A DNA stretch of 64,000 nucleotides from Methanosarcinales archaeon (GCA_030611585.1 JAUWPM010000001.1:1715-65714), one strand, 5' to 3'. Counted from the stretch's first letter, positions 35,904 through 54,249 are shown. Numbers and translations: made by a program. The notes: a model not told the origin generated them from the letters alone.

Positions 35904-35951
35904 TCTGGTTCACAAGAACAGTACAGTAAGAGAGTAAGGGTAAGGGCGGCG

Positions 35952-36461: not shown

Positions 36462-36479
36462 GAACGAAGGGTCAGCACA

Positions 36480-37280
36480 ATGTTAAAGGAATTGAAAGCG
36501 TCAAAGATCAAGATTGTTACGATACTATCCTGTTTACTGCTCGCCTTTTTTATTTTAGTCCTGATTATTTGCGTGGTTACGCACACCACGCTGCCGGCAC
36601 TGATGACCAGCCTTGCTTCCAAGGAGATACAATTCGCAATAAAATTGAGTTTGACAACCGCTGCCATCTCCACCATTCTATGTATTGCCATCTCAATACC
36701 TGCGGCATACGCGCTTGCTCGATACGAGTTCTTTGGTAAGAGTTTGATTAATACCCTGATGGACATTCCGCTGGCTTTACCGCCGTTGGTCGCTGGCGTG
36801 GGTTTGTTAATACTATTTGGCACGACCTCGTTTGGTAAAGCGCTTGCCGAAACGGGGCTTGTTTTCGTGTTCACACCATTGGGGATAATAATTGCGCAGT
36901 TCTTTGTTAACGTGCCGTTCATGTTCCGGATACTGCGAGGCACTTTTCAGGGCATAAATCCGAGATACGAGCACGTAGCAGAGACGCTTGGGTGCACAGA
37001 GGCACAGGCATTTCGGCGTGTTACACTGCCGATGTCGAAGAATGGTCTCTTAGCGGGCTCTGTTATCACGTGGTCAAAAGGGATAGGCGAGTTTGGAGCC
37101 GCACTGATGGTCGCAGGAGCGACGAGAATGAAGACCGAGACGTTGCCCATTTCATTATACTTGAACATGTCCTGCGGTGAACTCAATTTAGCCATCGCAT
37201 CAGCAACCATTCTGATTGTCATATCACTTGTATCTCTGTTCGTTTTTGAAAGGTACGGGGGTTTTGCCCGTGTATTCTGA
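36480..37280 (+). CDS. modB: molybdate/tungstate ABC transporter permease
   Basis: ABC-2 permease with the EAA-like loop (RVTLPMSKNGLLAGSVITWSKGIGEFGAALMVAG). Six TM helices. Confidence 0.85.
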   Translation: MLKELKASKIKIVTILSCLLLAFFILVLIICVVTHTTLPALMTSLASKEIQFAIKLSLTTAAISTILCIAISIPAAYALARYEFFGKSLINTLMDIPLALPPLVAGVGLLILFGTTSFGKALAETGLVFVFTPLGIIIAQFFVNVPFMFRILRGTFQGINPRYEHVAETLGCTEAQAFRRVTLPMSKNGLLAGSVITWSKGIGEFGAALMVAGATRMKTETLPISLYLNMSCGELNLAIASATILIVISLVSLFVFERYGGFARVF

Positions 37281-37302
37281 GGACAAAGGAGCGGCAAAGA
37301 AA

Positions 37303-38376: not shown

Positions 38377-38420
38377 GAAGCGGCATGCTTCTATAAAGGT
38401 TCGTTGAGAAACCAACAGTA

Positions 38421-38472
38421 AAAAACCGCAAACCTTTTTATATCGAATGGTCATATATCGCATATCGAAGGT
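38421..38472 (+). promoter_or_regulatory. promoter plus operator copy
   Basis: aaaaaccgcaaaCCTTTTTATATCGAATGGtcatatATCGCATATCGAAGGtggataaaATG. Confidence 0.6.
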
Positions 38473-38478
38473 GGATAA

Positions 38479-39666
<1,188 letters not shown>

Positions 39667-40536: not shown

Positions 40537-41778
40537 ATGAAAATTAGAGATTGTATGCTGTGGATGATGGTATGCATTAGCATAGGATTGTTGTTTTTAG
40601 CGCCTCCAGCACTGGTAGCAACGACAGGAGGGGCAGTCGCGATACATGAGAACGATGGCGTTACAGTTTTGAACGCGATGACGGCGGATGGCTTCTTCGA
40701 TGGCTCCGTCACACTTACGGACGGGAATTTCACTTTAACCGCATACAATTCCGGGGTAGATTACGAAGTCAGACAACTTACGCCCCTGGGCGCACTCGAC
40801 GCGGCGGCGACTGCAGGTGCATTTGACTACAACTTCACTGATAAGAAGTTTGATTCGCAGGGTATCCTGATGGTTGACGACATCGGAGAGTACCACTACA
40901 ACAAGATCAACAGTTCGGTAAAGTGGGCGTGGAGCTGCTCAGTAAATGGCAATGTCCTGGACGACTGGAGCAATCCCGGAACCGAAGGCTTGAACGTCTA
41001 CGAGCTGCATGACAATGACGTGGTGTACTACTACTACGGGAACGTCAAGCTGCCTGGTTACGGGCCTGAAGACGCCATAGCGGCAGTCAATATTACCGTG
41101 AATCCCACGCCGGGTGACTGGAATCTCAAGCTCGTTGGCGTAGTCAATGAAACCGTCACAAAGGCGGAGTTTGAGAACGGAGTTGCCTGTGGGCATTATG
41201 CTAACTGGACAAACTCCGAGACCGGTGAGTTCTGGGAAGGTATGCCGCTCTGGTACCTCGTAGGGCGGGTTGACGATGAGATACAGCACGGCTCAGGTGC
41301 ATTCAACGACTCGCTCGCTGCGGAGGGGTACTCGGTAAAAGTAATAGCCGGCGACGGATGGAGCACCAGCCTTGCCAGCGCGGACATCGCACGGAACGAT
41401 GGTTACATCGTTGCAAATAAGCTCAACGGCTCAGCACTTCCGAATCAGACGCCGTCCGGGAAGCCCTGCTGGCCTCTTCACCTCAAAGGCGCTAACGTGA
41501 CTGGCGGACAGCAGGTCGGGAACATCGTTGAGATTGACCTTGTCGGTCTACCCGAACCGCCTGAGGGCTGGGAACTCAAGCTGCTCGGCGACGTTGGCGA
41601 TACGATCACGCAAGCCGAGTTCGAGGATGCTGTTTCATGCCATGGCGTGACGTACACCGACGGTAGCGATATTTGGAGTGGAGTTCCGCTCTGGTATCTC
41701 TGCGGTGCGGTGGACAACCTCGAGACTGGCAGTCACTGGACATTTAACGATACCTCGCAGCCGCAGACTACACGGTAA
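40537..41778 (+). CDS. secreted multi-SUOX-fold surface protein, N-terminal part (signal peptide, beta-rich domain, two SUOX-like modules); continues into 41850-42341 after a frameshift
   Basis: Sec-type signal peptide. Modules match the YedY/sulfite-oxidase Moco-domain pattern: WNLKLVGVVNETVTKAEFE..VACGHY......WEGMPLWYLVGRV.......GYSVKVIAGDGWSTSL........DGYIVANKLNGSALP....WPLHLKGANV. Frame 1 ends ...TFNDTSQPQTTR*, and frame 0 from 41748 reads LAAADYTVKVIAADGYN..., which is the expected continuation. Confidence 0.7.
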   Translation: MKIRDCMLWMMVCISIGLLFLAPPALVATTGGAVAIHENDGVTVLNAMTADGFFDGSVTLTDGNFTLTAYNSGVDYEVRQLTPLGALDAAATAGAFDYNFTDKKFDSQGILMVDDIGEYHYNKINSSVKWAWSCSVNGNVLDDWSNPGTEGLNVYELHDNDVVYYYYGNVKLPGYGPEDAIAAVNITVNPTPGDWNLKLVGVVNETVTKAEFENGVACGHYANWTNSETGEFWEGMPLWYLVGRVDDEIQHGSGAFNDSLAAEGYSVKVIAGDGWSTSLASADIARNDGYIVANKLNGSALPNQTPSGKPCWPLHLKGANVTGGQQVGNIVEIDLVGLPEPPEGWELKLLGDVGDTITQAEFEDAVSCHGVTYTDGSDIWSGVPLWYLCGAVDNLETGSHWTFNDTSQPQTTR

Positions 41779-41849
41779 AAGTAATCGCAGCCGATGGCTA
41801 TAACAGATCATTTGTCAGCAGCGAGATTGCTCGTAACAACGGTTATATC

Positions 41850-42341
41850 GTGGCAAACACGCTGAACGGAGAGCCGCTTGACTATCTATGCCCGCTAAAG
41901 CTTGTGGGTAGCGCCATTACATCTGGTAAGGATAAGGTTGGTAACATCTCTGAGATTGATCTCGTTGAGCTTATCACTCCGCCACCTGATTCCGGCAGCT
42001 ATAACCTGAATTTAACCGGCAAGATAACTGACGTGTTATCTCAAACCGAATTCGAGGCTGGAGTTGCCTGCCATGACGTGACCTGGACAGATGACGACGG
42101 GAATGTGTGGCAAGGTGTTCCGCTCTGGCTCTTCTGCGGCTGGGTGGACGACCGAATCCCACACGGACCCGACGGATTCAACGACAATCAAGCTGCTGCG
42201 GGATACAAGATCATCGTAAAAGCCGGCGACGGCTATGCCAAGGAATTCGCAAGCGCAGACGTCGCTCGGACTAACGACTACATTATCGCCAACACGGTGA
42301 ACGGCACGCCGCTCTCAAAGGATGGTTCGCACCCGCCCTAG
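41850..42341 (+). CDS. SUOX-fold module fragment of the same surface protein; ends at in-frame TAG 42339-42341
   Basis: ...VACHDVTWTDDDGNVWQGVPLWLFCGWVDD...GYKIIVKAGDGYAKEFASADVARTNDYIIANTVNGTPL. The TAG replaces the Trp of the conserved (S/C)WPL(H/R)L motif seen in the sister modules. Confidence 0.65.
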   Translation: MANTLNGEPLDYLCPLKLVGSAITSGKDKVGNISEIDLVELITPPPDSGSYNLNLTGKITDVLSQTEFEAGVACHDVTWTDDDGNVWQGVPLWLFCGWVDDRIPHGPDGFNDNQAAAGYKIIVKAGDGYAKEFASADVARTNDYIIANTVNGTPLSKDGSHPP

Positions 42342-42377
42342 CCACTTAGAATTGTTGGACCGGGCGCGCAGGGTGGC

Positions 42378-43823
42378 ATGAGTGTTGGCAACATCGTGGA
42401 GATCGAATTGACCGAGTTTGGTACGTCAACAGAGGTGCCCTCCGTACACGTCGTCAAGTACGATACGGATGGCACTACCATTCTGAACGAGACCAACGTC
42501 ACTTACCTGTGGATGAAGGCAAACCTCCTGGTCATCGGAGACGGCACAACGCACTACAAGTTCGAGGCTTGTGATTTCACCGAAGGCGATCACTGGGATC
42601 AGGCTGAGACCTACCCGGGTGGCTTCAAGATAGATCGGGTCGTGAAAGGGACCTCGGTGAAAGATCTCTGTGAACTCGTCGGAGGCATGGGCGCCGAGAC
42701 CGAGATCAAGCTGGTTGCCAGTGATGGGTACGAGACCTCGCTGGGCTACGCGAACATCTACACCGATGAACTTACGAGTACGCAGCGGGAACGTCAGGGT
42801 GATGCTTTCCTCGCCTGGTGGGCGGATGATCAAGGCTACGTGCCGGACTATTCCAACGGAATGCGGCTATTCTTTAGCGCAAGTGACGATGACTACGTCT
42901 TCGGCCTGTGGGACATGCACGAGTGCATGGACGAAGATTACTGGCACTATTACTGGAATGGGGGCGTACAGTATCCCTCGTGTGCGGGTCTTTCAGCTAA
43001 GTATATTGATACAATCAAGATATATTCTGCGCCCGAAGCAGACTGGAATCTCACGTTAGAAGGCGCTATCAACGATACCATCAGCAAGTCATACTTTGAG
43101 CAGGCTCTCGCCTGTACCATGGGCGGACACGCAGCGGAATATACAGACAGCAAAGGCAGGATGTGGGAAGGAATGCCGTTATGGCTGCTCTGTGGCTGGG
43201 TGGATGACGAGAACAAGCATTCCGCGGGCGCATACAATGACGCACTCGCCGCGGCAGGGTACAACATTACGATCAGCGCGAGCGATGGCTATAACGTGAC
43301 AATTGACAGTAGAGATACGATCCGAAACAGCAACTACATCGTTGCGAACACGCTGAACGGCACGCACATACCTTCAGACAGTTCAAGCTGGCCACTCAGA
43401 CTCGTCGGAGCTAACGTATCCGGCAGCATGACCGTCAAAGGGATAGCAAAGATTGAACTGGATACTATTCCTACTCCTGCACCAACGCCAACACCAAGAC
43501 CACACGGCGGTGGAGGAGGAGCATCTAAAGATTCCGACGGCGATGGGTACTCAGATATACAAGAACTGCTTGCGGGAACCAACCCGAACGACCAGAATGA
43601 CTATCCAAACAAACCTGTAGCAACGCCAACACCGACTCTAACGTCAGCACCAACCGCAACACCAACACCAGTACCAACGGTACCACCAACAGTAGCACCA
43701 ACAGCAACACCAGTACCAGCAACACCCACACCAACACCGGAAGAACCGGGCTTCGAAGTAGGATTTGCCATTGCCAGCTTATTAGCGATCGCATATCTGG
43801 TGCTAAGAAAGAGGAGGAAGTAG
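42378..43823 (+). CDS. C-terminal part of the same surface protein: SUOX-like modules, Pro/Thr linker, DxDGDGxxD calcium-binding-like motif, PGF-CTERM
   Basis: No signal peptide of its own; same frame as 41850-42341. Contains VHVVKYDTDGTTILNETNVTYLWMKANL...VKDLCELVGGMGAETEIKLVASDGY... and a second module ...LACTMGGHAAEYTDSKGRMWEGMPLWLLCGWVDD.... Ends [25 protein letters not shown]. Confidence 0.7.
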   Translation: MSVGNIVEIELTEFGTSTEVPSVHVVKYDTDGTTILNETNVTYLWMKANLLVIGDGTTHYKFEACDFTEGDHWDQAETYPGGFKIDRVVKGTSVKDLCELVGGMGAETEIKLVASDGYETSLGYANIYTDELTSTQRERQGDAFLAWWADDQGYVPDYSNGMRLFFSASDDDYVFGLWDMHECMDEDYWHYYWNGGVQYPSCAGLSAKYIDTIKIYSAPEADWNLTLEGAINDTISKSYFEQALACTMGGHAAEYTDSKGRMWEGMPLWLLCGWVDDENKHSAGAYNDALAAAGYNITISASDGYNVTIDSRDTIRNSNYIVANTLNGTHIPSDSSSWPLRLVGANVSGSMTVKGIAKIELDTIPTPAPTPTPRPHGGGGGASKDSDGDGYSDIQELLAGTNPNDQNDYPNKPVATPTPTLTSAPTATPTPVPTVPPTVAPTATPVPATPTPTPEEPGFEVGFAIASLLAIAYLVLRKRRK

Positions 43824-43905
43824 AAGCAGAAAGGAACGAACCATAAAACAAGAAACTCGTTTTTATTTCACCTGAAAAATCCGCATAAGCACGGAGGAAG
43901 GCACT

Positions 43906-44898
43906 ATGAATCGTGTGAAGAAGGATAAGCATCAAGAATGGAGAGGTATGCTGCTCATCGGTACCCTTCTCGTGCTTCTCCTCCTCGCTGTACCACCAAC
44001 AACGGCAGCGACAACAGAGGTACATCTAATAAAGTACGCCGTGGATGAATCAATACTGAACGAGACCACGGTGAACTACACGTGGATGGAAGCGAATCTG
44101 CCGGTTTATGGCGATGGCGTAACGCATTACTACCACCAGGGACCTACCTTTAATGAGTGCGATCCGTGGGATCCTGCTGAGGATACAAACGTGGAAAATA
44201 GAGATTACGGTGCTGTGCGAGGGACGGATGTTAAGGATCTGAGCGATCTGGTGGGAGGGATGTCCCTTGGCGATGAGATAAAAATTAAGGCATCTGACGG
44301 CTTCTACAAGAGGTTCAACTACACAAATATCTATGCGCCACAACCAAGGCAGGGGCCGTTGGTTCTGACATGGTGGCATGCGGGAGATGGATACGTGCCC
44401 GACTATTATACTGGAATGCGTCTCATCTTCTTTGCCGACACCAGCACGAATCCATGGGGTTACCATGTATTTGGCAACTGGGACATGCACGAATGTCTCG
44501 CTCCAAAGTACTGGCATAACTATAGTGGAATATGGCCTTCTTCGAGTGGACTGTCTGTGTACCACGTTGATGAACTGGCGATATACAGCACGCTTGATCA
44601 CGCGGAGCTACGTTCAATTAAGGTTTCACCTACCGAAGTAACGCTGAACAGCAGAGATACGCAGCAGTTCACGGCAACCGCATACGACCAATATGGCAAT
44701 GAAATGCCAAACATTGACTTTACATGGGATAGCAGCAATGAAACCGTTGGAACTGTTGACGATACAGGATTGTTCGAGGCAAAAGCAGCAGGAACTACAA
44801 CGGTTACGGCGGCAAACGGAACCGTGAATGGAACGGCAATGGTAACGGTAATTCCCATCCCGATTACACTGGACCCTACATCACGGGCACTACAATAA
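43906..44898 (+). CDS. secreted SUOX-fold plus Big_2 domain protein, frameshifted into the downstream PAP-like ORF
   Basis: Signal peptide, then VHLIKYAVDESILNETTVNYTWMEANLPVYGDGVTHYYHQGP...VKDLSDLVGGMSLGDEIKIKASDGF...GMRLIFFAD (SUOX-like variant). A Big_2 Ig-like domain follows (VTLNSRDTQQFTATAYDQYGNEMP...GTTTVTAANGTVNGTAMVTV). Frame 0 is open from 44760 and reads ...PYITGTTINSTTINWKTENATTGTVKYATEG..., which is an FN3-like purple acid phosphatase N-domain. Confidence 0.65.
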   Translation: MNRVKKDKHQEWRGMLLIGTLLVLLLLAVPPTTAATTEVHLIKYAVDESILNETTVNYTWMEANLPVYGDGVTHYYHQGPTFNECDPWDPAEDTNVENRDYGAVRGTDVKDLSDLVGGMSLGDEIKIKASDGFYKRFNYTNIYAPQPRQGPLVLTWWHAGDGYVPDYYTGMRLIFFADTSTNPWGYHVFGNWDMHECLAPKYWHNYSGIWPSSSGLSVYHVDELAIYSTLDHAELRSIKVSPTEVTLNSRDTQQFTATAYDQYGNEMPNIDFTWDSSNETVGTVDDTGLFEAKAAGTTTVTAANGTVNGTAMVTVIPIPITLDPTSRALQ

Positions 44899-44945
44899 AC
44901 TCGACGACAATCAACTGGAAGACGGAAAATGCAACTACGGGGACG

Positions 44946-46343
44946 GTGAAGTATGCAACAGAAGGGTATTACACAGAACACGGCGACTACGACCATGCCG
45001 TTGAAGATGAGGAAGAGACGCAACTTCACCACCTCATTATTACGAATCTGATGCCGAATACGATATATCATTATCAACTAATAATCGGGAATGAATCCAC
45101 TGGCGACCATTTCTTCAGAACATTTCCGGTTACCAGTTCGTTCACCTTTATTGTGTACGGGGATACGAGAGAGCAAACACCGTTATTCACACAATTGGAG
45201 CGACACAAGCTCGTTGCAGACCGTATCGCAGAAGAGGAAAACATTTCATTCGTAATACACACCGGAGATTTTGTCTGCAATGGAAACGACCTTGACGAAT
45301 GGAACAGATTCTTCGATGCCGGCAGAGCGATGCTCGTAAATACAACTATTTATCCTGTGCTCGGAAATCATGAGGATAATCACACGAACTACTACGATAT
45401 GTTTGGCGTTCCAGAGTGGTATTCGTTCGACTGTGGAAACGCGCACTTTACCGTGCTGGATAGCAACTGGGTACCGCTACAGCAGACGGCATGGTTGCGG
45501 AACGACCTTAATACGAGTGCCGCATGGAAATTCGTGTCGTTCCACCATCCGATCTACAGCTCAGATGAACGACATTGGGGCGGCTGGAAGAATGACGTGT
45601 GGGAGAATATTTTCATAAACAACAGTGTAAATGCGGTGTTCAACGGTCACGTGCACGTTTACGAGCGCTACGAGGAGAATGGCATTCAGTACGTGGTTGT
45701 AGGTTGCGGTGGCGCGCCGTTGTATTCTCTTGCATCTGAGAAGATAGCCGGTTACCAGAACAGCTTTGAACACGCACTCGGATACGCTAAGATTACGATA
45801 GACTCAGATAAAGGAGAAGCGACAACGGAAGTAATAAAAGTCGCGGACGTCTCAGAAGATAACAAGAATGTTACATATATCTACCCACAGAACACGATAT
45901 TTGAGACCGTCGTCCTCTATTTAACCCAGCCTCCGCAAATATTCGATACCGGAGTCCCGGATAATCCCTATCCCTCTATTTCCGGCACACATAAAGGAAT
46001 GATCAAAACGGGTCGGGACATTAACGTGAGCACGATGTATACTTACCCATGCCCGGGAACAGGAGGGCATACAGAATACGTAAAGATCGAGAATGATTCC
46101 TGGAACATAACGGCGAATTGGACGGGGTACCAGGGCGACTGGCAGAACATTACCTTTGACGACTCGTTCACGCTAAAGGCCGGTGAAACGTACAGTTATA
46201 CAATAATAACCGGCTCGTATCCGCAGATAATACACAAGCATAAATTCAATGCAACAGGAGGAACAATAAACTGCACTGAATTCATAGACGCCAACGGAAA
46301 ACACTATCAGAATTGGGTACCCGCTATCAGACTATCCCGTTAG
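44946..46343 (+). CDS. purple-acid-phosphatase-like metallophosphoesterase domain (continuation of 43906-44898)
   Basis: GDTREQ, GDFVCNG, GNHE, VSFHHPIYS and GHVHVYER metallophosphatase motifs. GTG start assigned by the ORF finder; the upstream frame is open. Confidence 0.7.
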   Translation: MKYATEGYYTEHGDYDHAVEDEEETQLHHLIITNLMPNTIYHYQLIIGNESTGDHFFRTFPVTSSFTFIVYGDTREQTPLFTQLERHKLVADRIAEEENISFVIHTGDFVCNGNDLDEWNRFFDAGRAMLVNTTIYPVLGNHEDNHTNYYDMFGVPEWYSFDCGNAHFTVLDSNWVPLQQTAWLRNDLNTSAAWKFVSFHHPIYSSDERHWGGWKNDVWENIFINNSVNAVFNGHVHVYERYEENGIQYVVVGCGGAPLYSLASEKIAGYQNSFEHALGYAKITIDSDKGEATTEVIKVADVSEDNKNVTYIYPQNTIFETVVLYLTQPPQIFDTGVPDNPYPSISGTHKGMIKTGRDINVSTMYTYPCPGTGGHTEYVKIENDSWNITANWTGYQGDWQNITFDDSFTLKAGETYSYTIITGSYPQIIHKHKFNATGGTINCTEFIDANGKHYQNWVPAIRLSR

Positions 46344-46419
46344 AACTGTTATCTATGGTGGGTTAGGAGGGAGGATAAGACGAACCTTCAAGATTCTTCC
46401 ACAACCCCTACGGTGGAAC

Positions 46420-47841
46420 TCATTCTTTTCGCATATCTCTAAGGTCGTAGCAGAGGTATCCTTCTTCTACCAAATCCTCTTTCCCTTCTAATCTCTTCCC
46501 AATCAACCCGAAATGCTCCATCCGGGATTCATTGTTCCAATTAACCGATTCTGATTTATCTTTCAACTCTGCAAGAATCCTCCGCGCTTCCTCTAATTTC
46601 AAATCACTCCATTTCACCTCAAAGAAAGCTATCTCTTTTGTCTCTTCATTTAATGCCACCAGATCAATCTCCTTCTCTCTGTGCCACCATCTTCCTATCT
46701 TATGAAATCGGAATGGCTTTCTCTCTACCAGGAATTCCATTGCTATCTTTTCAAATGTAAATCCCAAATAGGAATTGAAGTCTCGCTTGAAATCTGACCA
46801 CGCACCTTCTATCTCCCACGTCTCGATCTCAGAGAAGTATCGTGAAACAAATCTGAACCAGAACTCGAAGAAATTATCCTTCATTCTATAAACCCCCCGT
46901 GTCCTTCTCTTATCCAGCACGGAATGCTCCCGCTTCACCAATCCCATATCCCCCAGAATTGATAGATATGCAGCGACATTCTTCGCCTCTAAGAAGGAAT
47001 AATTTGCTATCTCAACGACCTTCGTATATCCCATAGAAATTGCCTCAAGAATCTGGAAATATGTCTCTGGCTCTCTTAATTCCTCCTCAAGTATTAATTT
47101 GGGCTCGCGAAACAAAAAGCTTTCCGGATTAAAGACATTCTCCTTTATTTCCTTCTCCACGTTAATTCCGGAGAAGAATTCTAAATATTTCGGAATACCG
47201 TCACAAACGGCAAAAATCTTGATTAAATCTTCTATCTTCGTCTTTGGAAACCACTCACGCAAATCCCGGAATCTCAAAGGTTGAATAAATATCTGTCCGG
47301 TGCTTCTACCGTACAATGGCGATTTATAGCCCAAAACTCGCTTTTTCATCATGCTAACCGCAGACCCGGAGAGAATGAGCTTTACCTCTTTCTCTGGTAG
47401 AATTTTATCTGCAATCGTCTGAAATTCCGCAATAATATCACTCTTCTTAATTAAGTATGAGAATTCGTCTATGACAACAGTCAGCCCTTTCCTGTCCTCT
47501 TTGACTATAAAATCGAAACATTCAGAGAAGCTATTAAAATTCGGCTTTGGTATCCCAAAGTACTCCCCTATTGCTTTATTAAATTTTGATAGGTTATACT
47601 GCCATTTTCTCTCCTCACAGAGCAGGAATATATTCGCCTTGTCCTTTACAAATTCCTTTAGTAATCTGCTCTTCCCGGTCCTTCTCCTGCCGGAAACGAT
47701 GATAAACTCAAACCCCTTCTCTTTGTATTTCTTATCTAAAAATTCAAGCTCCTTTCTCCTGTCAATAAACTCTTTTCGGTACATGATTATATAATTTCGT
47801 TTCGAATATTTAAATGTAGTCTTTCCGGTAATAAAAAGCAA
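46420..47841 (-). CDS. archaeal ATPase (Arch_ATPase/AAA) with C-terminal DUF234 domain
   Basis: Walker A GRRRTGKSRLL and Walker B VVIDEFSY. C-terminal DUF234-type domain (about 110 aa). Flanked on the right by MITE-like fragments (47935-48135). Confidence 0.8.
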   Translation of the reverse strand: MLFITGKTTFKYSKRNYIIMYRKEFIDRRKELEFLDKKYKEKGFEFIIVSGRRRTGKSRLLKEFVKDKANIFLLCEERKWQYNLSKFNKAIGEYFGIPKPNFNSFSECFDFIVKEDRKGLTVVIDEFSYLIKKSDIIAEFQTIADKILPEKEVKLILSGSAVSMMKKRVLGYKSPLYGRSTGQIFIQPLRFRDLREWFPKTKIEDLIKIFAVCDGIPKYLEFFSGINVEKEIKENVFNPESFLFREPKLILEEELREPETYFQILEAISMGYTKVVEIANYSFLEAKNVAAYLSILGDMGLVKREHSVLDKRRTRGVYRMKDNFFEFWFRFVSRYFSEIETWEIEGAWSDFKRDFNSYLGFTFEKIAMEFLVERKPFRFHKIGRWWHREKEIDLVALNEETKEIAFFEVKWSDLKLEEARRILAELKDKSESVNWNNESRMEHFGLIGKRLEGKEDLVEEGYLCYDLRDMRKE

Positions 47842-47934
47842 TTAATAAACCACGAGATTAACACAAGAAATGTTGGCTAATAAGGGATAAAATTGCAGAT
47901 AGAACACAGAAAACTGGTTCCTATTATTGTTCTC

Positions 47935-48135
47935 TCGTGAAATAAGCCCGTACATGGTTTTCGGGGACGTGGGCAGTGCCCACGATGCGGGGGCACGGGC
48001 GGAGCCACACATAAAAAAGTCTCTCTAGTGAAACTTCCTTTTTCAAAGAGACATATTCTTTCTTAGCACAGGTTCTTTCTACGAGAAAGAAAGTGTTGTG
48101 CAATCTGGTGGTTACAACTTTAACTTTAAACCACG
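47935..48135. repeat. MITE-like repeat fragments (family A hairpin and family B-like core)
   Basis: ggggacgtgggcagtgcccacgatgcgggggcacgggcggagcc ... ttctttcttagcacaggttctttctacgagaaagaaagtgttgtgcaatctgg resembles 8900-8930 and 11120-11210. Confidence 0.6.
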
Positions 48136-48170
48136 AGATTCCACGAGAGGGACACAGAAGAATAAAAAAA

Positions 48171-48198
48171 ATCTGTGAGAATCTGTGAGAATCTGTGG
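48171..48198. repeat. short tandem repeat, 3 x aatctgtgag-like (10 bp)
   Basis: atctgtgaga atctgtgaga atctgtgg, immediately upstream of promoter copy e. Confidence 0.6.
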
Positions 48199-48224
48199 TT
48201 ACAAAATTTTTATCAGCATGAATA

Positions 48225-48272
48225 AACCGAAAACCTTTTATGTCGAACGGTCTATTTTTACATATCAATGCG
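48225..48272 (+). promoter_or_regulatory. promoter plus operator copy heading the SUOX-wtpABC operon
   Basis: aaaccgaaaaCCTTTTATGTCGAACGGtctatttttaCATATCAATGcgg. Confidence 0.6.
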
Positions 48273-49845
48273 GCGTGGTACGGAAAAGATGAAACAAATG
48301 AAACAATATGTGCCACTAGCATTATTGTGTGCCGGTGTTGCGCTGCTGCTCTTAACGCTTCCAGCGCAGGCAGCAGGTACGACAGAAGTGCACGTGGTGA
48401 AATACGCCTCTGATGGCACGACCGTTCTGAACGAGACGACGGTAAACTACATGAGGATGAAGGCGAATCTACCAGTCTACGGGGATGGGACTACGCATTA
48501 CTACCATCAGGGACCGATCTTCGAAGATGCATGGAATGAAGTACACCCCAACGAGACGTGGGATCTTGAAGAGGACAAGTGGAACCCGGAAGAGGACGTC
48601 AATGTACTTGGGGAAGACCTGGGCGCCGTGAAAGGAACGGACGTTAAGGATCTGTGTGATTTGGTCGGAGGAATGTCAGAAGGCGATGAGGTAAAGATTA
48701 AAGCCGTTGACAACTTCTACAAGAGTTTCCCGTACTCGAACGTCTACGAACCCGATCCGCGACAGGGTCCGATGGTCGTGACCTGGTACACCGAAGACGC
48801 CACGGAGAGCGGGCCGATTAGCGGGTACGTGCCGGAGGACTACTATAACGGCATGCGACTCGTATTCCTTGCTGATGCTTCCACCAACCCGTGGGGCAAG
48901 CACGTATTTGGCATCAGCGACATGCGCGCATGCCTCCCTGAGGATTACTGGCATTACTATCAGTACCCGGATTACCCTTCTACGGGCGGATACACTATAA
49001 AGTACATAGATAGAATCCTGATCTACAGCAGTATCGAGCCACCGGAATTGACGTCAATCGCGGTTTCTCCATCCAGCGTGGAGCTGGAAGAAGATGCGAC
49101 AAAACAGTTCAATGCAACCGCATACGACCAGAATGGCGATGAAATGCCAGATATAATCTTTACGTGGACGAGCAGTGATGAAACAGTTGGAACAATTGAC
49201 GAAAATGGATTATTTACCGCATTAGATGCCGGGGAGACCACAATAACAGCAGCGAACGAAACAGTAGAGGGAACGGCAACTGTAACGGTACACGAGGAAG
49301 ACAGCGATGACAATGAAGATGGGGAAGATAGTGGTGCTGGTGACGGAACTTCTCAGTCCAGCCCAGTCCTAACCGTAATTAACGTCTCACCGCCATCAGT
49401 AACGCTGAACGCCAGTAACACGCAGCAGTTCAATGCAACCGCTTACGACCAAACGCAGAACCCGATAGTGGGTGTCGTTTTCAATTGGACGATCGGCAAT
49501 GAAACCGTTGGAACGATCAATAACGCTGGATTCTTCACCGCTATTGCAGCAGGAACGACAACGATAAGAGCTGCGAATGGAACCGTGAACGGAACGGCAA
49601 ATGTAACGGTGCTTGCTCCGACAACAACACCTTCACCAACTGAAACGCTAACGGTAAACGCAACGCCTTTTCCATCTCCTACCGCTCATTCAATTCCGAC
49701 ACACTCGCCATCTGCAACAGTAACAGCAACACCTACGCCCACAGTAACGTCTACGCCAACGCCATCAGTACCAGGATTTGAAGCTTTATTCGCACTCGTA
49801 GGATTGTTGACGGTAGCTTACGTGATTAATAGGAGAAAAAAATAA
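48268..49845 (+). CDS. secreted surface protein: SUOX-fold module, two Big_2 domains, Thr/Pro linker and PGF-CTERM (intact)
   Basis: Signal peptide. VHVVKYASDGTTVLNETTVNYMRMKANLPVYGDGTTHYYHQGP...VKDLCDLVGGMSEGDEVKIKAVDNFY...GMRLVFLAD...KYIDRILIYS. Two Big_2 domains (VSPSSVELEEDATKQFNATAYDQNGDEMP...; VSPPSVTLNASNTQQFNATAYDQTQNPIV...). Ends PGFEALFALVGLLTVAYVINRRKK. Confidence 0.75.
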   Translation: MRRGTEKMKQMKQYVPLALLCAGVALLLLTLPAQAAGTTEVHVVKYASDGTTVLNETTVNYMRMKANLPVYGDGTTHYYHQGPIFEDAWNEVHPNETWDLEEDKWNPEEDVNVLGEDLGAVKGTDVKDLCDLVGGMSEGDEVKIKAVDNFYKSFPYSNVYEPDPRQGPMVVTWYTEDATESGPISGYVPEDYYNGMRLVFLADASTNPWGKHVFGISDMRACLPEDYWHYYQYPDYPSTGGYTIKYIDRILIYSSIEPPELTSIAVSPSSVELEEDATKQFNATAYDQNGDEMPDIIFTWTSSDETVGTIDENGLFTALDAGETTITAANETVEGTATVTVHEEDSDDNEDGEDSGAGDGTSQSSPVLTVINVSPPSVTLNASNTQQFNATAYDQTQNPIVGVVFNWTIGNETVGTINNAGFFTAIAAGTTTIRAANGTVNGTANVTVLAPTTTPSPTETLTVNATPFPSPTAHSIPTHSPSATVTATPTPTVTSTPTPSVPGFEALFALVGLLTVAYVINRRKK

Positions 49846-49846
49846 A

Positions 49847-50671
49847 ATGAACAGAAAAATAGTGTTTGGGATTTCACTGCTTCTGCTCTTAGTATTCGCA
49901 ACGGGTTTTGCTCATGCGGATCCAACGACGGAAGTGCACGTGATAAAGTATGCTGAGAATGAAACAATACTGAACGAAACAACCGTAACGTACCAGTGGC
50001 TGGAGGCGAATCTGCCGGTTCAGGGAGATGGAATAACGCATTATTACCATCAGGGACCGGTATTCGAGGGCGATAAATGGGATCCGAACGAGACGGCGAA
50101 CTATAAGGATAGAGGCGCCGTGAAAGGAACGGATATAAAGGATTTGTGCGATCTCGTGGGAGGGATGTCGCCGGGTGACGAAGTGATGATCCACGCGCCG
50201 GACGGCTACCACGTGGAGTTCGGCTACGCAAACGTCTACGAACCACAGCTTAGACAGGGACCGATGGTTCTGTGCTGGCATTGCAGCGAGGATATAAAAG
50301 AAATCGGCGAGCGACAGGGCGAGGGGTATCCACCAGACTATTACACGGGGATGCGGCTCGTCTTCTTCGCTGACGATTCTACCAATTTAGAGGGTAAACA
50401 CGTCTTCGGCAACTGGGACATGCACGAATGCTTACCCGAGCAGTGCTATCACTTCTATGAGCTCTATCCCTCCACAAACGGGTTTTCAGTGAAGTGGGTG
50501 GATGAGCTAAGGATTTACAGTGGTGGATACACCGGCGAGCACGGCGATCCAGCGAAAGCTATGCCTACGCCCACGCCTGCGTCACGCTCAATACCGGGAT
50601 TTGAGCTCGTATTCGCAATTGCGGGATTGCTGTTAGTTGCTTGTCATACTTTAGAGAGGAAAAGAAGATGA
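49847..50671 (+). CDS. secreted SUOX-fold protein with PGF-CTERM (intact)
   Basis: VHVIKYAENETILNETTVTYQWLEANLPVQGDGITHYYHQGP...IKDLCDLVGGMSPGDEVMIHAPDGY...GMRLVFFAD...KWVDELRIYSG; ends PGFELVFAIAGLLLVACHTLERKRR. The ATG lies 1 nt after the upstream TAA. Confidence 0.75.
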   Translation: MNRKIVFGISLLLLLVFATGFAHADPTTEVHVIKYAENETILNETTVTYQWLEANLPVQGDGITHYYHQGPVFEGDKWDPNETANYKDRGAVKGTDIKDLCDLVGGMSPGDEVMIHAPDGYHVEFGYANVYEPQLRQGPMVLCWHCSEDIKEIGERQGEGYPPDYYTGMRLVFFADDSTNLEGKHVFGNWDMHECLPEQCYHFYELYPSTNGFSVKWVDELRIYSGGYTGEHGDPAKAMPTPTPASRSIPGFELVFAIAGLLLVACHTLERKRR

Positions 50672-51267
50672 AAAAAAGCAAAGTCCTTGGACTTTTACTT
50701 GTTGTTGCGGTGGTCTGTATCGGTGGTATTGCAGCGGTTGCGTATCTGAATCCTTTTGGCACGCCGGAGGAGACCGTTGACTGGAACGTGACGTTGATAG
50801 GGTGCGGAGGCGAGGAGAAAGTGCTAACGTTCGACGAGATAAAAGCGATGCCTTCTTACAAGGGCTACGGCGGGTTCTTCACTACGGTTGGCATAGTAAA
50901 CGGGCCGTATAAATGCAAAGGCGTGCCCTTGAAGGACCTCTGCGCGCTCGTTGGCGGACTCGATGCGTCAAACACTGTCTGGGTATCGGCACCCGATGGG
51001 TATTTAATGACCTTCAGCTACGATCAGGTCAACGGTGATTTCCGCACTTACGATCCTGCAACGTTTAAGGAAGTGCCACACGAGGATTTAACGCTGATCT
51101 TGATGTACGAGCAGGATGACGCACCGCTGTCCGATTACGATGGCAGACCGCTCAGACTCGCGATCGTATCATCGTCGTCGTCAAGCGATGAGTTCATAAC
51201 GGAAGGGCATAGCTGGGTGAAATGGGTGAATAAAATAGAGGTTCGAACACCCGCTGCGAGTGCGTAG
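50668..51267 (+). CDS. small membrane-anchored SUOX-fold (Oxidored_molyb-like) protein
   Basis: N-terminal TM or signal anchor. WNVTLIGCGGEEKVLTFDEIKAMP...CKGVPLKDLCALVGGLDASNTVWVSAPDGY...LTLILMYEQDDAPLSDYDGRPLRLAIVSS...SWVKWVNKIEV aligns along its whole length with the YedY/SUOX Moco domain. Its ATG overlaps the upstream TGA (ATGA). Confidence 0.75.
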   Translation: MKKSKVLGLLLVVAVVCIGGIAAVAYLNPFGTPEETVDWNVTLIGCGGEEKVLTFDEIKAMPSYKGYGGFFTTVGIVNGPYKCKGVPLKDLCALVGGLDASNTVWVSAPDGYLMTFSYDQVNGDFRTYDPATFKEVPHEDLTLILMYEQDDAPLSDYDGRPLRLAIVSSSSSSDEFITEGHSWVKWVNKIEVRTPAASA

Positions 51268-51281
51268 CAGGATGGAGAAAG

Positions 51282-52331
51282 ATGAACGCTAAGCACATTG
51301 TCGTACTAACACTAATCGCTGCGGTGGTTCTGAGTGCCGCGTGCATCTCCCAGGATCAAGGGAAGAGCAAATTGAAGGTCATTTATGCCGGGAGTCTGAT
51401 CCTCCCGTTTGGCGAGCTGGAGCAGGCGTTTGAGAGCGAGCATCCAGACGTGGACGTGCTGGTAGAGGGGCACGGAAGTATCCAGGCGATTCGGCATATA
51501 ACCGACGTGCATGAGGAGTACGACGTGATCGCCGTGGCAGACGATTCCTTAGTACCTGCAATGATGTACCCCGAGTATGCGGACTGGTGTGTGCGGTTCG
51601 CAACGAACCAGATGGTCATCATGTACACCAACAGGAGCAACTACGCGGCTGAGATAAACGACTCGAACTGGTATGAAATCCTCGCACGCCCAGATGTGAT
51701 GTTCGGCTTCTCGAATCCCATGTTCGATGCCTGCGGATACAGAACGCTGATGGTGATCCCGCTCGCGGAATCGTACTACGGCAATCAAACGATCTTTGAC
51801 GTACTGATCGCACGCAATTTCGACCCGCCATTGCCGCTGATTAAGGATAACGGCACGTACACAGTGGTGGTGCCCGAAGTATTCGAGCCGCAGGGAGATA
51901 AAATCGCCGTACGGGGCGGAAGCGTGCAATTAATAGCTCTGCTCGATTACGGCGGTATTGACTACGCCTTCGGATACAAGAGCGTGGCACAGCAGCACGG
52001 ACTGCGGTATTTGGAGCTGCCTGCCGAGATAGATTTGAGTTCGCCGGAGTACTGTGAGACGTACGATAAAGCTAAAGTTACGCTTGGATTTCAACGCTTT
52101 ACGTCCGTGGGTGTTGAGCGTATCGGCCGACCGATCTTCTACGGGATAACCGTCCCTAAGAACGCACCGGATCCTGAGCTGGGACTGGAATTCGTGAACT
52201 TCGTGCTGAGTGAGGAGGGGCAGAGGATTCTCCAGGACAATAATCAGCCTACTATCCCGCCCGAAGTGGACAATTTGGATAAAATACCCGTGGAGCTCAG
52301 ACCCGTGGTTATAAAAGAGATAAAAGAATAG
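51282..52331 (+). CDS. wtpA: WtpA-type tungstate/molybdate ABC transporter substrate-binding protein (lipobox-type N-terminus)
   Basis: Signal peptide with Cys (VLSAACIS). KLKVIYAGSLILPFGELEQAFESEHPDVDV... is paralogous to 38551-39666 ([15 protein letters not shown] motif shared). Confidence 0.85.
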   Translation: MNAKHIVVLTLIAAVVLSAACISQDQGKSKLKVIYAGSLILPFGELEQAFESEHPDVDVLVEGHGSIQAIRHITDVHEEYDVIAVADDSLVPAMMYPEYADWCVRFATNQMVIMYTNRSNYAAEINDSNWYEILARPDVMFGFSNPMFDACGYRTLMVIPLAESYYGNQTIFDVLIARNFDPPLPLIKDNGTYTVVVPEVFEPQGDKIAVRGGSVQLIALLDYGGIDYAFGYKSVAQQHGLRYLELPAEIDLSSPEYCETYDKAKVTLGFQRFTSVGVERIGRPIFYGITVPKNAPDPELGLEFVNFVLSEEGQRILQDNNQPTIPPEVDNLDKIPVELRPVVIKEIKE

Positions 52332-52347
52332 TGAGGAGGGAGGACGG

Positions 52348-53163
52348 ATGAACTCACTTTCAGGATGGCCCGGGACGGAGAAACTAAAGCGGGAGAAGGT
52401 CTACATCCTTTTCCTCTTCTTAGGGCTCGTTCTTGTTGCTTTTGTCTTTATTACAATTGGAAACTTGTATTACAAGCAAGCAGAAGACTTCTCCGGGTTA
52501 ATTGATGCTGCGACTGACCTCGTAGTTCTAAAAGCAATAGCGATAAGCATAACTATGGCACTGGCTTCCACCTTAATCGCGTTCTTATTTGGCGTCCCCT
52601 TAGCGTATTTCCTCGCGAGGAAGGAGTTCATGGGTAAGAGCGTAATAGAAGGTATTGTGGACATTCCCTTGATGATTCCACATGTGGTTGCTGGAATTGC
52701 ATTGTACGGGGTGTTCATGCGGTATGGATTGATCGGTGCGCCGCTTAGAAAATTGGGAATCGTAATTACGGATGCGTATCCCGGAATCGTGGTTGCGATG
52801 CTCTTCATGAGTCTCCCGTATTTGGTAGATACTGCGCGAGAAGGATTTAAAGAGGTTGATCCACGGTTAGAAAACGTTGCTCGCTCATTGGGCGCATCTC
52901 ATTGGAGAACGTTCCGAGAGATAACGTTCCCGCTTGCTTTCCCGTCCATATTGAGCGGCGCGATTCTGAGCTGGGGGCGAGCGATAAGCGAGTTCTCTGC
53001 GGTTCTAATCATCGCATATCACCCGATCTCCGCACCAATTTTAATCTACGAGAAGTTTACTTCGTTTGGACTTCGGGCATCACGACCAATCTCGGTTCTG
53101 CTGATCTCGATCTGTCTGGTTATTTTTATAATGCTGAGGTGGCTTCAGAGGAGAAGGGGATGA
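52348..53163 (+). CDS. wtpB: tungstate/molybdate ABC transporter permease
   Basis: Paralogue of 36480-37280 (LPLAFPSILSGAILSWGRAISEFSAVLIIA). Confidence 0.85.
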   Translation: MNSLSGWPGTEKLKREKVYILFLFLGLVLVAFVFITIGNLYYKQAEDFSGLIDAATDLVVLKAIAISITMALASTLIAFLFGVPLAYFLARKEFMGKSVIEGIVDIPLMIPHVVAGIALYGVFMRYGLIGAPLRKLGIVITDAYPGIVVAMLFMSLPYLVDTAREGFKEVDPRLENVARSLGASHWRTFREITFPLAFPSILSGAILSWGRAISEFSAVLIIAYHPISAPILIYEKFTSFGLRASRPISVLLISICLVIFIMLRWLQRRRG

Positions 53164-54249
53164 ATGATAGAAGTACGAGCTTTATACAAGGACTGGAAAG
53201 AGTTCGCTCTTAAAGACATAAACCTGGAAATTAAAAAAGGCGAGTATTTCGTCATTCTGGGTCCCACAGGTGCGGGAAAGACGTTACTGCTGGAGACGAT
53301 TGCGGGTTTTTATATCCCGGATAGCGGAGAAGTCAGGATTGACGGTCGTGACGTGACGATTATTCCACCCGAGAGGCGGAGGATCGGCTTTATTTATCAG
53401 GATTATTCACTCTTCCCACATTTGAACGTTGAGCAGAACATAGAATTCGGGTTGAAGTCGAGGAAAAAGTCTGCATCGCAGGATACGAACAGGAAGAGAG
53501 TGAAGGAAATAATGGACTGGCTGAGTATATCGCACCTTGCGCATCGCTACCCCGCTACGTTAAGTGGTGGAGAACAGCAGAAGGTTGCAATTGGCAGAGC
53601 GATTGCCATTGAACCTTCAATATTGCTTCTGGACGAGCCGCTATCTGCTTTAGACCGCAGAACGCAAGATCATCTGAGAGAGGAACTGAAGCGTGTGAAA
53701 GAAGAGTTTGGGATTACCATGGTTCACGTAACGCACGACCAGACGGAAGCGTTGGTGCTCGCGGATAGAATAGCGGTGATGATGCAAGGGCGAATAATGC
53801 AGGTGGGTACGCCTCAAGAGATTTTTAATAAGCCACTGAACGAGGAGTTAGCAGATTTTGTTGGCATCGAGAATGTATTACGTGGTGTAGTGCGAATTAA
53901 TGAGAATGGCATTGCGGAGATAGAAGTTGATATGGGGGTTACCATATTCGCCGTTTCGGAGTATCGTGATGGAGCGGTGAAAGTATTCATAAGGCCGGAA
54001 GACATAATTTTGTCAAAAAGCATAGGGGATAGCAGTGCGAGAAACGTTATGAACGTAAGAATAAAGGAGTTGCACGATATGGGCCCTTTAACTCGTGTAA
54101 AACTGGATGGCGAGCGTAGCAAGCATAGCAAGCGTATCGAGCTTGTAGCGCTTATTACGAAACAATCGCGTGAAGAGCTCGGGCTAAAAGAAGGGGACGC
54201 AGTCTACGCAACTTTTAAAGCGACTTCGGTGCACGTAGTGCGAGGATAG
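53164..54249 (+). CDS. wtpC: tungstate/molybdate ABC transporter ATPase with C-terminal Mop/TOBE domain
   Basis: Walker A GPTGAGKT and signature LSGGEQQKVAIGRA. C-terminal TOBE domain ends ...LGLKEGDAVYATFKATSVHVVRG. About 75% identical to the product of 37303-38376. Confidence 0.88.
   Translation: MIEVRALYKDWKEFALKDINLEIKKGEYFVILGPTGAGKTLLLETIAGFYIPDSGEVRIDGRDVTIIPPERRRIGFIYQDYSLFPHLNVEQNIEFGLKSRKKSASQDTNRKRVKEIMDWLSISHLAHRYPATLSGGEQQKVAIGRAIAIEPSILLLDEPLSALDRRTQDHLREELKRVKEEFGITMVHVTHDQTEALVLADRIAVMMQGRIMQVGTPQEIFNKPLNEELADFVGIENVLRGVVRINENGIAEIEVDMGVTIFAVSEYRDGAVKVFIRPEDIILSKSIGDSSARNVMNVRIKELHDMGPLTRVKLDGERSKHSKRIELVALITKQSREELGLKEGDAVYATFKATSVHVVRG

Follow-up and report, generated by a model that had tools for sequence, protein, structure and literature searches.

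SUOX-like modules without the molybdenum-ligand cysteine are encoded beside WtpABC and may be extracytoplasmic binding proteins for tungstate/molybdate uptake

The closest described counterpart of the proteins analyzed here is PruR, a Sec-secreted, non-enzymatic pterin-binding protein of solved structure (PDB 7KOS, 7KOM, 7KP2, and 7RKB), which consists of a minimal SUOX-like fold of ~130-160 amino acids and carries a P-W motif in place of the Mo-ligating Cys (PMC11194511). PruR systems have been described only in Proteobacteria, where the gene lies directly upstream of, and is coupled to, that of a partner with an extracytoplasmic domain, the DcpA or DTB sensor, in a two-gene operon. The same fold is that of the SUOX molybdoenzymes (sulfite oxidase, SorA/SorT, SoxC, YedY/MsrP, and assimilatory nitrate reductase; PF00174), which have an invariant Mo-ligating Cys at the end of a β-hairpin and receive their cofactor in the cytoplasm, either as cytoplasmic enzymes or ahead of export by a Tat leader. 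On the transport side, WtpA, ModA, and TupA are extracytoplasmic proteins with a class II SBP fold that serve W/Mo supply. In the literature searched, we found no description of accessory capture proteins for these transporters or of Wtp-linked SUOX-like proteins.

Between positions 40537 and 51267 of the window (the whole stretch of 64,000 nucleotides that was analyzed, from an ANME-1/Methanophagales genome), there are nine SUOX-like modules, which belong to three subfamilies: T1 (four modules), T2 (four modules), and G (one module). A preliminary description of this DNA had recognized the SUOX fold of these modules, as borne out below, and had put their number at about 10. The relevant features are:

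35061-39666, + strand: a further Mo/W uptake set preceding the module genes, with ModA, a TrmO-like ORF, a permease, WtpC, and, at 38551-39666, a WtpA with a PGF-CTERM anchor
40537-43823, + strand: large surface-protein gene (1096-aa conceptual product), assigned from ORFs, frames, and Pfam matches (TSP3_bac, PGF-CTERM, and a weak PF00174)
41113-41550, + strand: module T1a, with VACGHY at 41182 (PF00174 E = 0.018, below threshold)
41563-41972, + strand: module T1b, with VSCHGV at 41632 and an internal frameshift
41994-42419, + strand: module T1c, with VACHDV at 42063 and an internal TAG
42438-43037, + strand: module T2a, a divergent copy (HYYHQG changed to HYKFEA)
43038-43469, + strand: module T1d, with LACTMG at 43107
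43906-46343, + strand: T2-metallophosphoesterase gene, a single gene in relatives and here two ORFs (43906-44898 and 44946-46343), encoding T2b (44011-44595), Big_2 (44608-44850), a purple-acid-phosphatase N domain (44871-45128), the metallophosphoesterase core (45141-45725), and a C-terminal domain
48268-49845, + strand: protein E, with a Sec leader, T2c (48379-49035), two Big_2 domains, a Thr/Pro linker, and PGF-CTERM
49847-50671, + strand: protein F, with a Sec leader, T2d (49925-50527), and a PGF-CTERM/TM tail
50668-51267, + strand: protein G, with an N-terminal membrane anchor or signal followed by a single SUOX-like domain (50776-51252)
51282-52331, + strand: WtpA (NCBIfam scores 384.7, cut-off 355, and 359.7, cut-off 242.75)
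52348-53163, + strand: WtpB (NCBIfam score 309, slightly below the cut-off of 340)
53164-54249, + strand: WtpC (NCBIfam score 446.7, cut-off 440)

The large surface protein comprises, in order, a Sec leader, an N-terminal domain with no significant match in Pfam or NCBIfam, T1a, T1b, T1c, T2a, T1d, a TSP3 repeat, a Thr/Pro linker, and PGF-CTERM; intact orthologs of its gene have the architecture T2-NtA-T1x3-T2-T1 (e.g., L007 2808-6317). The T2-metallophosphoesterase product matches Big_2, Metallophos, and Pur_ac_phosph_N in Pfam, and its C-terminal domain gave nothing significant in Pfam or NCBIfam (DUF4430, E = 1.6).

Among the three subfamilies, only G clearly passes the Pfam threshold, scoring 37.1 bits against PF00174 (threshold 24) over model positions 8-162 of 169. 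The T1 modules are close to this threshold or short of it (T1d, 24.2 bits within its ORF and 21.8 by itself; T1a, 15.1), and T2 had no match in Pfam or NCBIfam searches. Used as a query, a single T1 module retrieved only 15 proteins, and the T1 family was built instead from six-frame ORFs of fetched loci, yielding 141 modules from 49 loci. The protein F family is highly conserved (572 clusters at 50% identity) and has no Pfam or NCBIfam model. In HHalign comparisons, the T1 profile matched the G family (98.7%, E = 1.7e-15), as did that of T2 (98.2%, E = 3e-14). The direct comparison of T1 with T2 was not significant (0.07% global, 10.8% local), and their kinship may be traced only through G as an intermediate.

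Searched by sequence against the PDB, G alone gave zero matches, and the G family profile recovered just the C-terminal core of sulfite oxidases. By structure, G matched PruR best in Foldseek, and weak Foldseek matches also tie T2 to the fold (the AF2 model of F is poor, with a pLDDT of 66.5). The modules have the SUOX Moco-domain fold and keep the SUOX core motifs 'PLR' and 'SVKW/WVKW'. The fold search with G also returned 3hbg and 3hbq, crystallized Cys-to-Ser/Ala mutants of sulfite oxidase; such mutants speak for the possibility of an enzyme that keeps this fold around a non-Cys ligand, a reading considered below.

None of the nine window modules has a Cys at the ligand position, in agreement with the earlier proposal that the Mo-coordinating Cys lacks a consistent counterpart. 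In G, the motif 'GFFTTVG' lies at 50872-50892, within 50668-51267 as first described, and sits at the position of Cys98 of plant sulfite oxidase, as judged from the profile alignment and the hairpin E73-80/E86-96; 95 of 111 G homologs have GFF[TS][TS][VT]G, without Cys. The equivalent site in T2 reads HYY[HFLM]QG, with Cys in only 3 of 138 motifs, and in T1 the ligand-equivalent residue is the T/D of 'WTD'. The T1 motifs VACGHY, VSCHGV, VACHDV, and LACTMG do exist as noted previously, but their Cys does not vary in position: it occupies one alignment column, which holds Cys in 74% of the 141 T1 modules. The counterpart of this column in G is 'PSY', and the ligand position follows ~8 residues later. 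On the basis of this register and the level of conservation, we rejected the T1 Cys as the Mo ligand. Thus, G, T1, and T2 all lack an invariant Cys at the end of the β-hairpin.

No strict Tat motif was found by motif scan in the window proteins, in 108 G-family homologs, or in 119 F-family homologs, and the n-regions of the leaders in both families are short. The window proteins contain 'RR' just once, as MRRG in 48268, 11 residues away from the hydrophobic core. The alignment with the SUOX family revealed no invariant Cys at the ligand position and the motif scan no twin-arginine signals, and the view that the leaders are of the Sec type holds. By this motif scan, the proteins have no Tat leader that would permit cofactor loading in the cytoplasm, and we know of no route for extracellular Moco insertion. 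Since the Mo-ligating Cys is missing and the leaders are Sec-type, the modules are unlikely to be Moco-loaded enzymes, as judged from their sequences and as suspected in the preliminary description. Compared with SUOX molybdoenzymes, they also lack a dimerization domain, a heme domain, and redox partner genes. PGF-CTERM signals (PF18204/TIGR04126) score above threshold in the large surface protein, E, F, and WtpA1.

PruR thus provides a precedent for a Moco-free SUOX fold, and like it the locus encodes small, Sec-exported proteins made up almost wholly of this fold, upstream of and coupled to a gene for an extracytoplasmic partner. The earlier suggestion of a new functional class for the fold is not sustained (PMC11194511); what appears to be new is its context beside WtpABC. 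Where PruR has its P-W motif, the residue is Thr in G, Thr/Asp in T1, and His/Tyr in T2, and no Trp was found at the Mo-ligand site in the family alignments of G, T1, or T2. Matched by motif and not by superposed coordinates, the pterin contacts of PruR (Asn/Asp-x-Tyr and Trp) may have counterparts in the invariant D119-G-Y121 and near-invariant W192/W195 of G, whose pocket positions are apparently kept, and in the invariant D119-G-Y121-H122 and K216-W217 of T2; by the same motif comparison, T1 has DGY and no Trp. Unlike PruR, the modules form tandem arrays and fusions (T1, T2, and phosphoesterase), their hosts are Archaea, Chloroflexota, and Bacillota, the partner is WtpA/WtpABC, and in bacteria Moco riboswitches control the clusters.

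The WtpABC tungstate/molybdate ABC importer (51282-54249) is packed tightly behind G, whose start codon shares ATGA at 50668-50671 of the window with the stop codon of F. The gene order T2 protein, G protein, WtpA hardly varies across ~80 genomes, which come from anaerobic Archaea, Chloroflexota, and Bacillota: WtpA lies directly 3' of G in 75 of 77 loci, and a T2 gene directly 5' of G in 73 of 74. Four-nucleotide gene overlaps are frequent, with F-G-like ones also in L007 and L085. WtpB and WtpC come next after WtpA in 33 of 54 loci and are absent downstream in the other 21. T1/T2 arrays and the T2-fused metallophosphoesterase are common upstream; fusions include T2-MPE, T2-T1, T2-G, and T1-G-T1, and module-bearing proteins also carry Big_2, TSP3, dockerin, and PEGA domains. 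Genes for electron-transfer partners, whether heme, cytochrome, or other, were not found in the clusters. The hosts comprise ANME-1/2, Methanocellales, Methanomicrobiales, Methanotrichaceae, Dehalococcoidia, Chloroflexia, Syntrophomonadaceae, Peptococcaceae, and Moorellaceae.

In eight bacterial loci, an RF01055 Moco riboswitch lies directly 5' of the first module gene (60-85 bits; gathering score 36), in tandem in four of them; the pair in L060 lacks P3 and is of the Tuco type (PMC2408646). The archaeal window gave no riboswitch against Rfam. Some enzymes that use Moco likewise have a Moco riboswitch ahead of their genes (PMC2408646), so such control alone does not prove a role in acquisition. 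A riboswitch-controlled W/Mo operon of S. wolfei has been reported to contain 'genes of unknown function', with nothing more specific (Regulski 2008). The conserved WtpABC operon, the metallophosphoesterase fusions, and these bacterial Moco/Tuco riboswitches had all escaped the preliminary description.

Taken together, we consider it probable that the modules are Moco-free SUOX-fold binding modules forming an extracytoplasmic front end of WtpABC tungstate/molybdate uptake. Sec would export them unfolded, and PGF-CTERM/archaeosortase tails or a membrane helix would hold them on the cell surface. T1/T2 arrays on large surface proteins may bind scarce extracellular W/Mo species at the vestigial cofactor pocket; the candidates are an oxyanion, a thioanion, or a metal in pterin-bound or organically bound form. 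In many genomes, the T2-fused metallophosphoesterase could process the captured species, and the membrane-proximal F (T2) and G would hand the metal to WtpA for import. We infer ligand binding, ligand identity, and this hand-off; the conserved module residues show no obvious likeness to known molybdate/tungstate sites. The modules would share with WtpA, ModA, and TupA an extracytoplasmic place in the same uptake operons and the same cellular need, in a β-rich domain unrelated to the SBP fold. Of the functions first put forward, binding domains for oxyanions or pterin-like ligands thus seem the best class of explanation, whereas alternative metal ligation in an enzyme does not hold up well.

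Such a relay would resemble the Isd system of Gram-positive bacteria, in which NEAT domains demonstrably pass heme to an ABC transporter. By functional analogy and not homology, both present repeated modules, ligand-binding in Isd and proposed to be so here, on sortase- or archaeosortase-anchored surface proteins encoded with an SBP (a lipoprotein) and an ABC permease, in hosts without an outer membrane; fold and ligand are entirely different.

A more specific version of the uptake reading, which we hold tentatively and regard as rather unlikely, is extracellular W/Mo salvage in sulfidic anoxic habitats, where the modules would take cofactor-bound metal from lysed neighbors, or thiometalates. 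Here, the pockets would accept molybdopterin, tungstopterin, or their dinucleotide forms, the metallophosphoesterase would strip the phosphate or nucleotide handle, and the freed tungstate or molybdate would pass through F and G to WtpA. If true, it would give Mo/W transporters their first described accessory capture machinery and prokaryotes a first known way to reuse external Moco-bound metal.

The likeness to PruR also raises the possibility that the modules are pterin sensors, binding free extracellular pterin and regulating WtpA/WtpABC activity without carrying metal. We find this improbable, as the defining P-W motif and the DcpA/DTB partner are missing, T1 lacks the Trp ('VGNIVEIEL'), PruR systems have been described in Proteobacteria only, and multi-copy arrays with phosphoesterase fusions fit capture and processing better than one-to-one signaling.

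There is likewise little chance that the modules are generic envelope, S-layer, or adhesin blocks without a specific small ligand, adjacent to wtp by co-regulation or chance hitch-hiking. PGF-CTERM tails and Big_2, TSP3, dockerin, and PEGA domains in the same proteins would suit such blocks, as would the disruption of upstream genes in a window that kept its transporter, but the F-G-WtpA order with overlapping stop and start codons extends over two domains of life, the bacterial loci are under riboswitch control, and T2 retains 57-89% identity across orders with ~48 invariant positions, well above what is expected of a structural spacer.

Finally, it is highly improbable that the modules are true extracellular molybdo- or tungsto-enzymes that use Thr/Ser, His, or Tyr as metal ligand and gain their cofactor after Sec export: the retained SUOX core and the occurrence of Moco riboswitches before Moco-using enzymes (PMC2408646) would fit, but a Cys-less SUOX enzyme is not known (PMC11194511), ~230 homologs have zero Tat motifs by motif scan, electron-transfer partners are missing from the clusters, and tandem arrays of 3-5 modules with Ig-like fusions typify binding proteins and not redox enzymes.

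Three upstream genes are disrupted in the window. The large surface-protein gene, which encodes T1a to T1d and T2a, is broken twice, by a frameshift at ~41754 and by a TGG to TAG change at 42339-42341, where TAG takes the place of Trp in the 'WPLRLVG' motif of T1c. Decoding of this TAG as pyrrolysine was judged unlikely, given the conserved Trp that it replaces and the frameshift in the same gene. A further frameshift at 44871-44892 splits the T2-metallophosphoesterase gene; its counterpart in L020, L013, L014, and L036 is a single ORF, which can be aligned with the two window frames in succession. As the T1-bearing and T2-metallophosphoesterase genes are disrupted, either at least part of the system is dispensable in this genome or the assembly contains errors.

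W/Mo enzymes, among them formylmethanofuran dehydrogenase and formate dehydrogenase, are needed by methanogens, methane-oxidizing ANME archaea, syntrophic Bacillota, and Dehalococcoidia, which live in habitats where sulfide strips dissolved molybdate and tungstate from the water. The way in which these anaerobes acquire W/Mo is an acknowledged open problem (PMC11484787), and conserved surface proteins linked to WtpABC, riboswitch-controlled in bacteria, are concrete, testable candidates for the missing step. With them, the recently recognized class of Moco-free SUOX-fold binding proteins represented by PruR would extend past Proteobacteria and past signaling. The database names 'molybdopterin-dependent oxidoreductase', 'DMSO/TMAO reductase YedYZ catalytic subunit', and 'argininosuccinate synthase' should be corrected for these proteins; left as they are, such names would inflate molybdoenzyme counts in environmental genomes. 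A cultured host of the cluster is Methanoculleus (L085).

The window has archaeal features (PGF-CTERM tails, an archaeal RNase P RNA and a class I LysRS), and the best protein matches come from ANME-1/Methanophagales MAGs, at 89-90% identity. The features relevant here, including the Rfam matches, are:

29082-29158: DUF3800-X sRNA (Rfam match)
34819-34940, - strand: 5S rRNA (Rfam match)
35061-39666, + strand: ModA, TrmO-like ORF, permease, WtpC and PGF-CTERM-anchored WtpA, in that order
40537-43823, + strand: large surface-protein gene
43906-44898, + strand: T2 + Big_2 ORF
44946-46343, + strand: metallophosphoesterase ORF, next after the T2 + Big_2 ORF
46420-47841, - strand: ATPase-like ORF, 473 aa, with a weak Sso10a-family winged-helix match
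48268-49845, + strand: protein E
49847-50671, + strand: protein F
50668-51267, + strand: protein G
51282-54249, + strand: second WtpA, then WtpB and WtpC
55862-56139: archaeal RNase P RNA (Rfam match)
63917-63988, - strand: tRNA (Rfam match)

The genes from E to WtpC are close-packed, with intergenic gaps of at most 16 nt, and the F stop codon overlaps the G start codon as ATGA. The TrmO/TsaA-like ORF (35952-36461; TIGR00104, E=1.6e-37), a tRNA methyltransferase homolog lying between ModA and the Mo/W permease, is odd company inside the upstream transporter operon.

Self-comparison and family profiles resolved nine modules of three kinds in the window. T1 modules (~140 aa, n=4) all lie within the large gene and carry the signature 'WNLxLxG ... 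WxGxPLW ... ADGY ... VANxLNG ... WPLRLVG ... VGNIVEIEL'. T2 modules (~200 aa, n=4) occur once in the large gene and once each at the N-termini of the 43906 ORF, E and F, with the signature 'TEVHVVKY ... GDGxTHYYHQGP ... VKGTDIKDLCxLVGG ... DGYH ... GMRLVFFAD ... SVKWV'; the G module (~155 aa) is present once. The evidence for a sulfite-oxidase (SUOX) fold differs in strength among the three. The only kind to clear Pfam PF00174 plainly is G, with 37.1 bits over positions 8-162 of the 169 in the model; T1 scores are borderline or under threshold, and T2 found no match in Pfam or NCBIfam. In HHalign, a profile of 123 T1 modules drawn from 49 loci matches the G family over the full length (98.7%, E 1.7e-15). 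For the F/T2 family the alignment to G covers the C-terminal two thirds (98.2%, E 3e-14), and the direct comparison of T1 with T2 gave no significant similarity. The F/T2 model is of low confidence (pLDDT 66.5); its top structural matches are nonetheless SUOX/PruR only. At 50% identity, the T2 family forms 572 clusters among 1.84 billion representatives; some members are giants, reaching 3139 aa and carrying as many as four T2 copies. NtA, the ~160-aa domain at the N-terminus of the large protein (40621-41112), recurs in many loci in front of T1 arrays, in places duplicated, and had no significant Pfam match (best, DUF4430, E=1.6).

The preliminary description held that the Mo-ligand Cys of SUOX enzymes has no consistent counterpart in these modules, and alignment to the SUOX site bears this out for all three kinds. 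The G profile segment 'ieWnltl...alpsye' aligns to residues 63-91 of plant sulfite oxidase, whose ligand we take to be Cys98; the equivalent position, seven residues past the segment, is the Thr of GGFF[T]TVG in G, at the tip of the hairpin E73-80/E86-96 in the predicted model. The Cys of SUOX enzymes sits at this hairpin tip (PMC11194511). The motif GFF[TS][TS][VT]G is found in 95/111 G homologs, and the position is never Cys. T2 has at the site a near-invariant HYYHQG (106/120 close homologs), which becomes HYY[HFLM]QG in divergent representatives (Cys in 3/138 motifs) and is followed by a long, highly conserved, family-specific loop, 'GPVFEGDKWDPNETxNFKDRG'. T1 places the T/D of 'WTD' there, so that Cys is absent from the ligand position in every module type. 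The motifs VACGHY, VSCHGV, VACHDV and LACTMG are real and all belong to T1 modules, but their Cys does not vary in position, as had been thought: the four share a single alignment column, which holds Cys in 74% of 141 T1 modules and pairs with 'PSY' of G, ~8 residues upstream of the ligand site.

All five polypeptides begin with a short, positively charged n-region followed by a hydrophobic core. At motif level, at which Tat export was assessed, the Sec-type leaders proposed earlier hold up: the strict S/T-R-R-x-F-L motif occurs in 0/108 G-family and 0/119 F-family homologs, and a loose RR motif beside the core in only 4/108 and 1/119. PGF-CTERM sorting signals end the large protein, E, F and the upstream WtpA. 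The two WtpA paralogs differ in anchoring, the upstream copy (38551-39666) having a C-terminal Thr/Pro linker before its PGF-CTERM and the downstream copy (51282-52331) a lipobox-like 'LSAAC' at its N-terminus.

With each species represented by one genome, G relatives turned up in 185 species, and 80 loci (L numbers) were fetched. The hosts are strict anaerobes. The archaeal hosts are ANME-1/2, Argoarchaeum, Methanocellales, Methanotrichaceae, Methanoregulaceae and other Methanomicrobiales; the bacterial hosts are Dehalococcoidia, Chloroflexia, Syntrophomonadaceae, Peptococcaceae and Moorellaceae. By tblastn with the window proteins against these loci, WtpA directly follows G, in the same orientation, in 75/77 and a T2 gene directly precedes G in 73/74, with WtpB and WtpC next in 33/54. 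Upstream sequence reached 6 kb or more in 45 loci; of these, 38 have T1-bearing ORFs and 24 the metallophosphoesterase. Three distant homologs, checked independently, have the same neighbourhood. The modules recombine freely in stop-to-stop ORFs (T2-NtA-NtA-T1x3-T2-T1, T2-T1, T2-G, T1-G-T1), and there are at least 10 fusions of T2/T1 to metallophosphoesterase. Methanoculleus sp. Wushi-C6, a cultured methanogen with the full cluster (L085; GCA_032842345.1, 599-11428), agrees with this arrangement and is a possible experimental system; its cluster comprises a 1180-aa module protein, a 361-aa protein, an 845-aa PEGA protein, the metallophosphoesterase, F, G and WtpA, with overlaps of 4 nt.

In eight bacterial loci (L028, L034, L039, L040, L052, L056, L060 and L062), an RF01055 molybdenum cofactor (Moco) riboswitch lies directly 5' of the cluster's first multi-module gene, with bit scores of 66-85 (gathering score, 36). 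Four of the eight, in Chloroflexota and Dehalococcoidia, have tandem riboswitches:

L028, 3972-4296: tandem Moco riboswitches
L034, 6319-6701: tandem Moco riboswitches
L039, 2954-3252: tandem Moco riboswitches
L060, 4798-5132: tandem Moco riboswitches

Stem P3 is missing from the L060 pair and present in the L034 pair; Regulski et al. proposed that the P3-less variant senses a tungsten cofactor, and mentioned a riboswitch-controlled S. wolfei operon in which genes for W/Mo transport occur along with 'genes of unknown function' (PMC2408646). Since RF01055 precedes the clusters, module-gene expression in bacteria would be tied to the intracellular level of the Mo/W cofactor.

Four features argue for binding modules: the missing Mo ligand, Sec-type export, anchoring at the cell surface and the tandem arrays. 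The modules are tied to W/Mo acquisition by the F-G-WtpA order (near-invariant, translationally coupled and shared by Archaea and Bacteria), by the riboswitches and fusions, and by the very high T2 conservation. For these reasons we propose that the modules probably form an extracytoplasmic capture and hand-off stage for the importer WtpABC; that they are purely structural envelope proteins seems unlikely. PruR, a Sec-secreted pterin-binding protein, is the nearest characterised relative in form, but its defining P-W motif is missing from T1, T2 and G, and its partner sensors DcpA/DTB are missing beside them, so the new families should not be filed as PruR; we likewise doubt that they are PruR-like pterin sensors regulating the transporter. 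The four features that favour binding modules speak against cofactor-loaded enzymes, and true enzymes with an unconventional metal ligation are very improbable.

For the capture stage, two kinds of ligand are candidates. Support for a pterin- or cofactor-type ligand comes from the ancestry of the pocket, the phosphoesterase fusion, the retained 'SVKW' core motif, and the apparent retention of the D/N-x-Y and Trp positions, which contact pterin in PruR (PMC11194511, PMC13259868). In favour of a (thio)oxyanion are the coupling to an oxyanion-binding solute-binding protein and the sulfidic habitat of every host, in which thiometalates predominate (PMC11484787).

The G family is named 'molybdopterin-dependent oxidoreductase' or 'DMSO/TMAO reductase YedYZ catalytic subunit' at NCBI (P0001-P0105), names that mislead because these proteins lack the Cys and the cofactor-loading route that define SUOX enzymes. 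Many T2/F-family proteins (among P0146-P0214) are named 'argininosuccinate synthase', which is certainly wrong. A literature search for accessory SUOX-like proteins of Mo/W transporters found no description; we rate Moco-free SUOX-fold binding proteins as known, and the functional context and lineages as new.

At this locus, E, F, G and WtpABC are intact. The large gene has a frameshift at ~41754, inside T1b, and a TGG->TAG change at 42339-42341 that removes the conserved Trp of 'WPLRLVG' in T1c; the T2-Big_2-phosphoesterase gene, a single ORF in L020, L013, L014 and L036, is broken in two by a frameshift at 44871-44892. These disruptions reflect either decay of the system's outer part into pseudogenes or errors in the assembly. 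The ATPase-like gene, in a stretch of lower GC (~41%) between the phosphoesterase gene and E, is absent from this site in the orthologous loci L007 and L085, and thus looks like an insertion.

In translation, the metallophosphoesterase keeps GDx, GDxx, GNHE, H and GHxH, which we take to be its metal-ligand motifs. Purple acid phosphatases have an Fe(III)-ligating Tyr within GDxxY; the phosphoesterase core here (45141-45725) has 'GDFVC', with Cys in place of the Tyr, and the metal centre may therefore differ from that of the classical enzymes.
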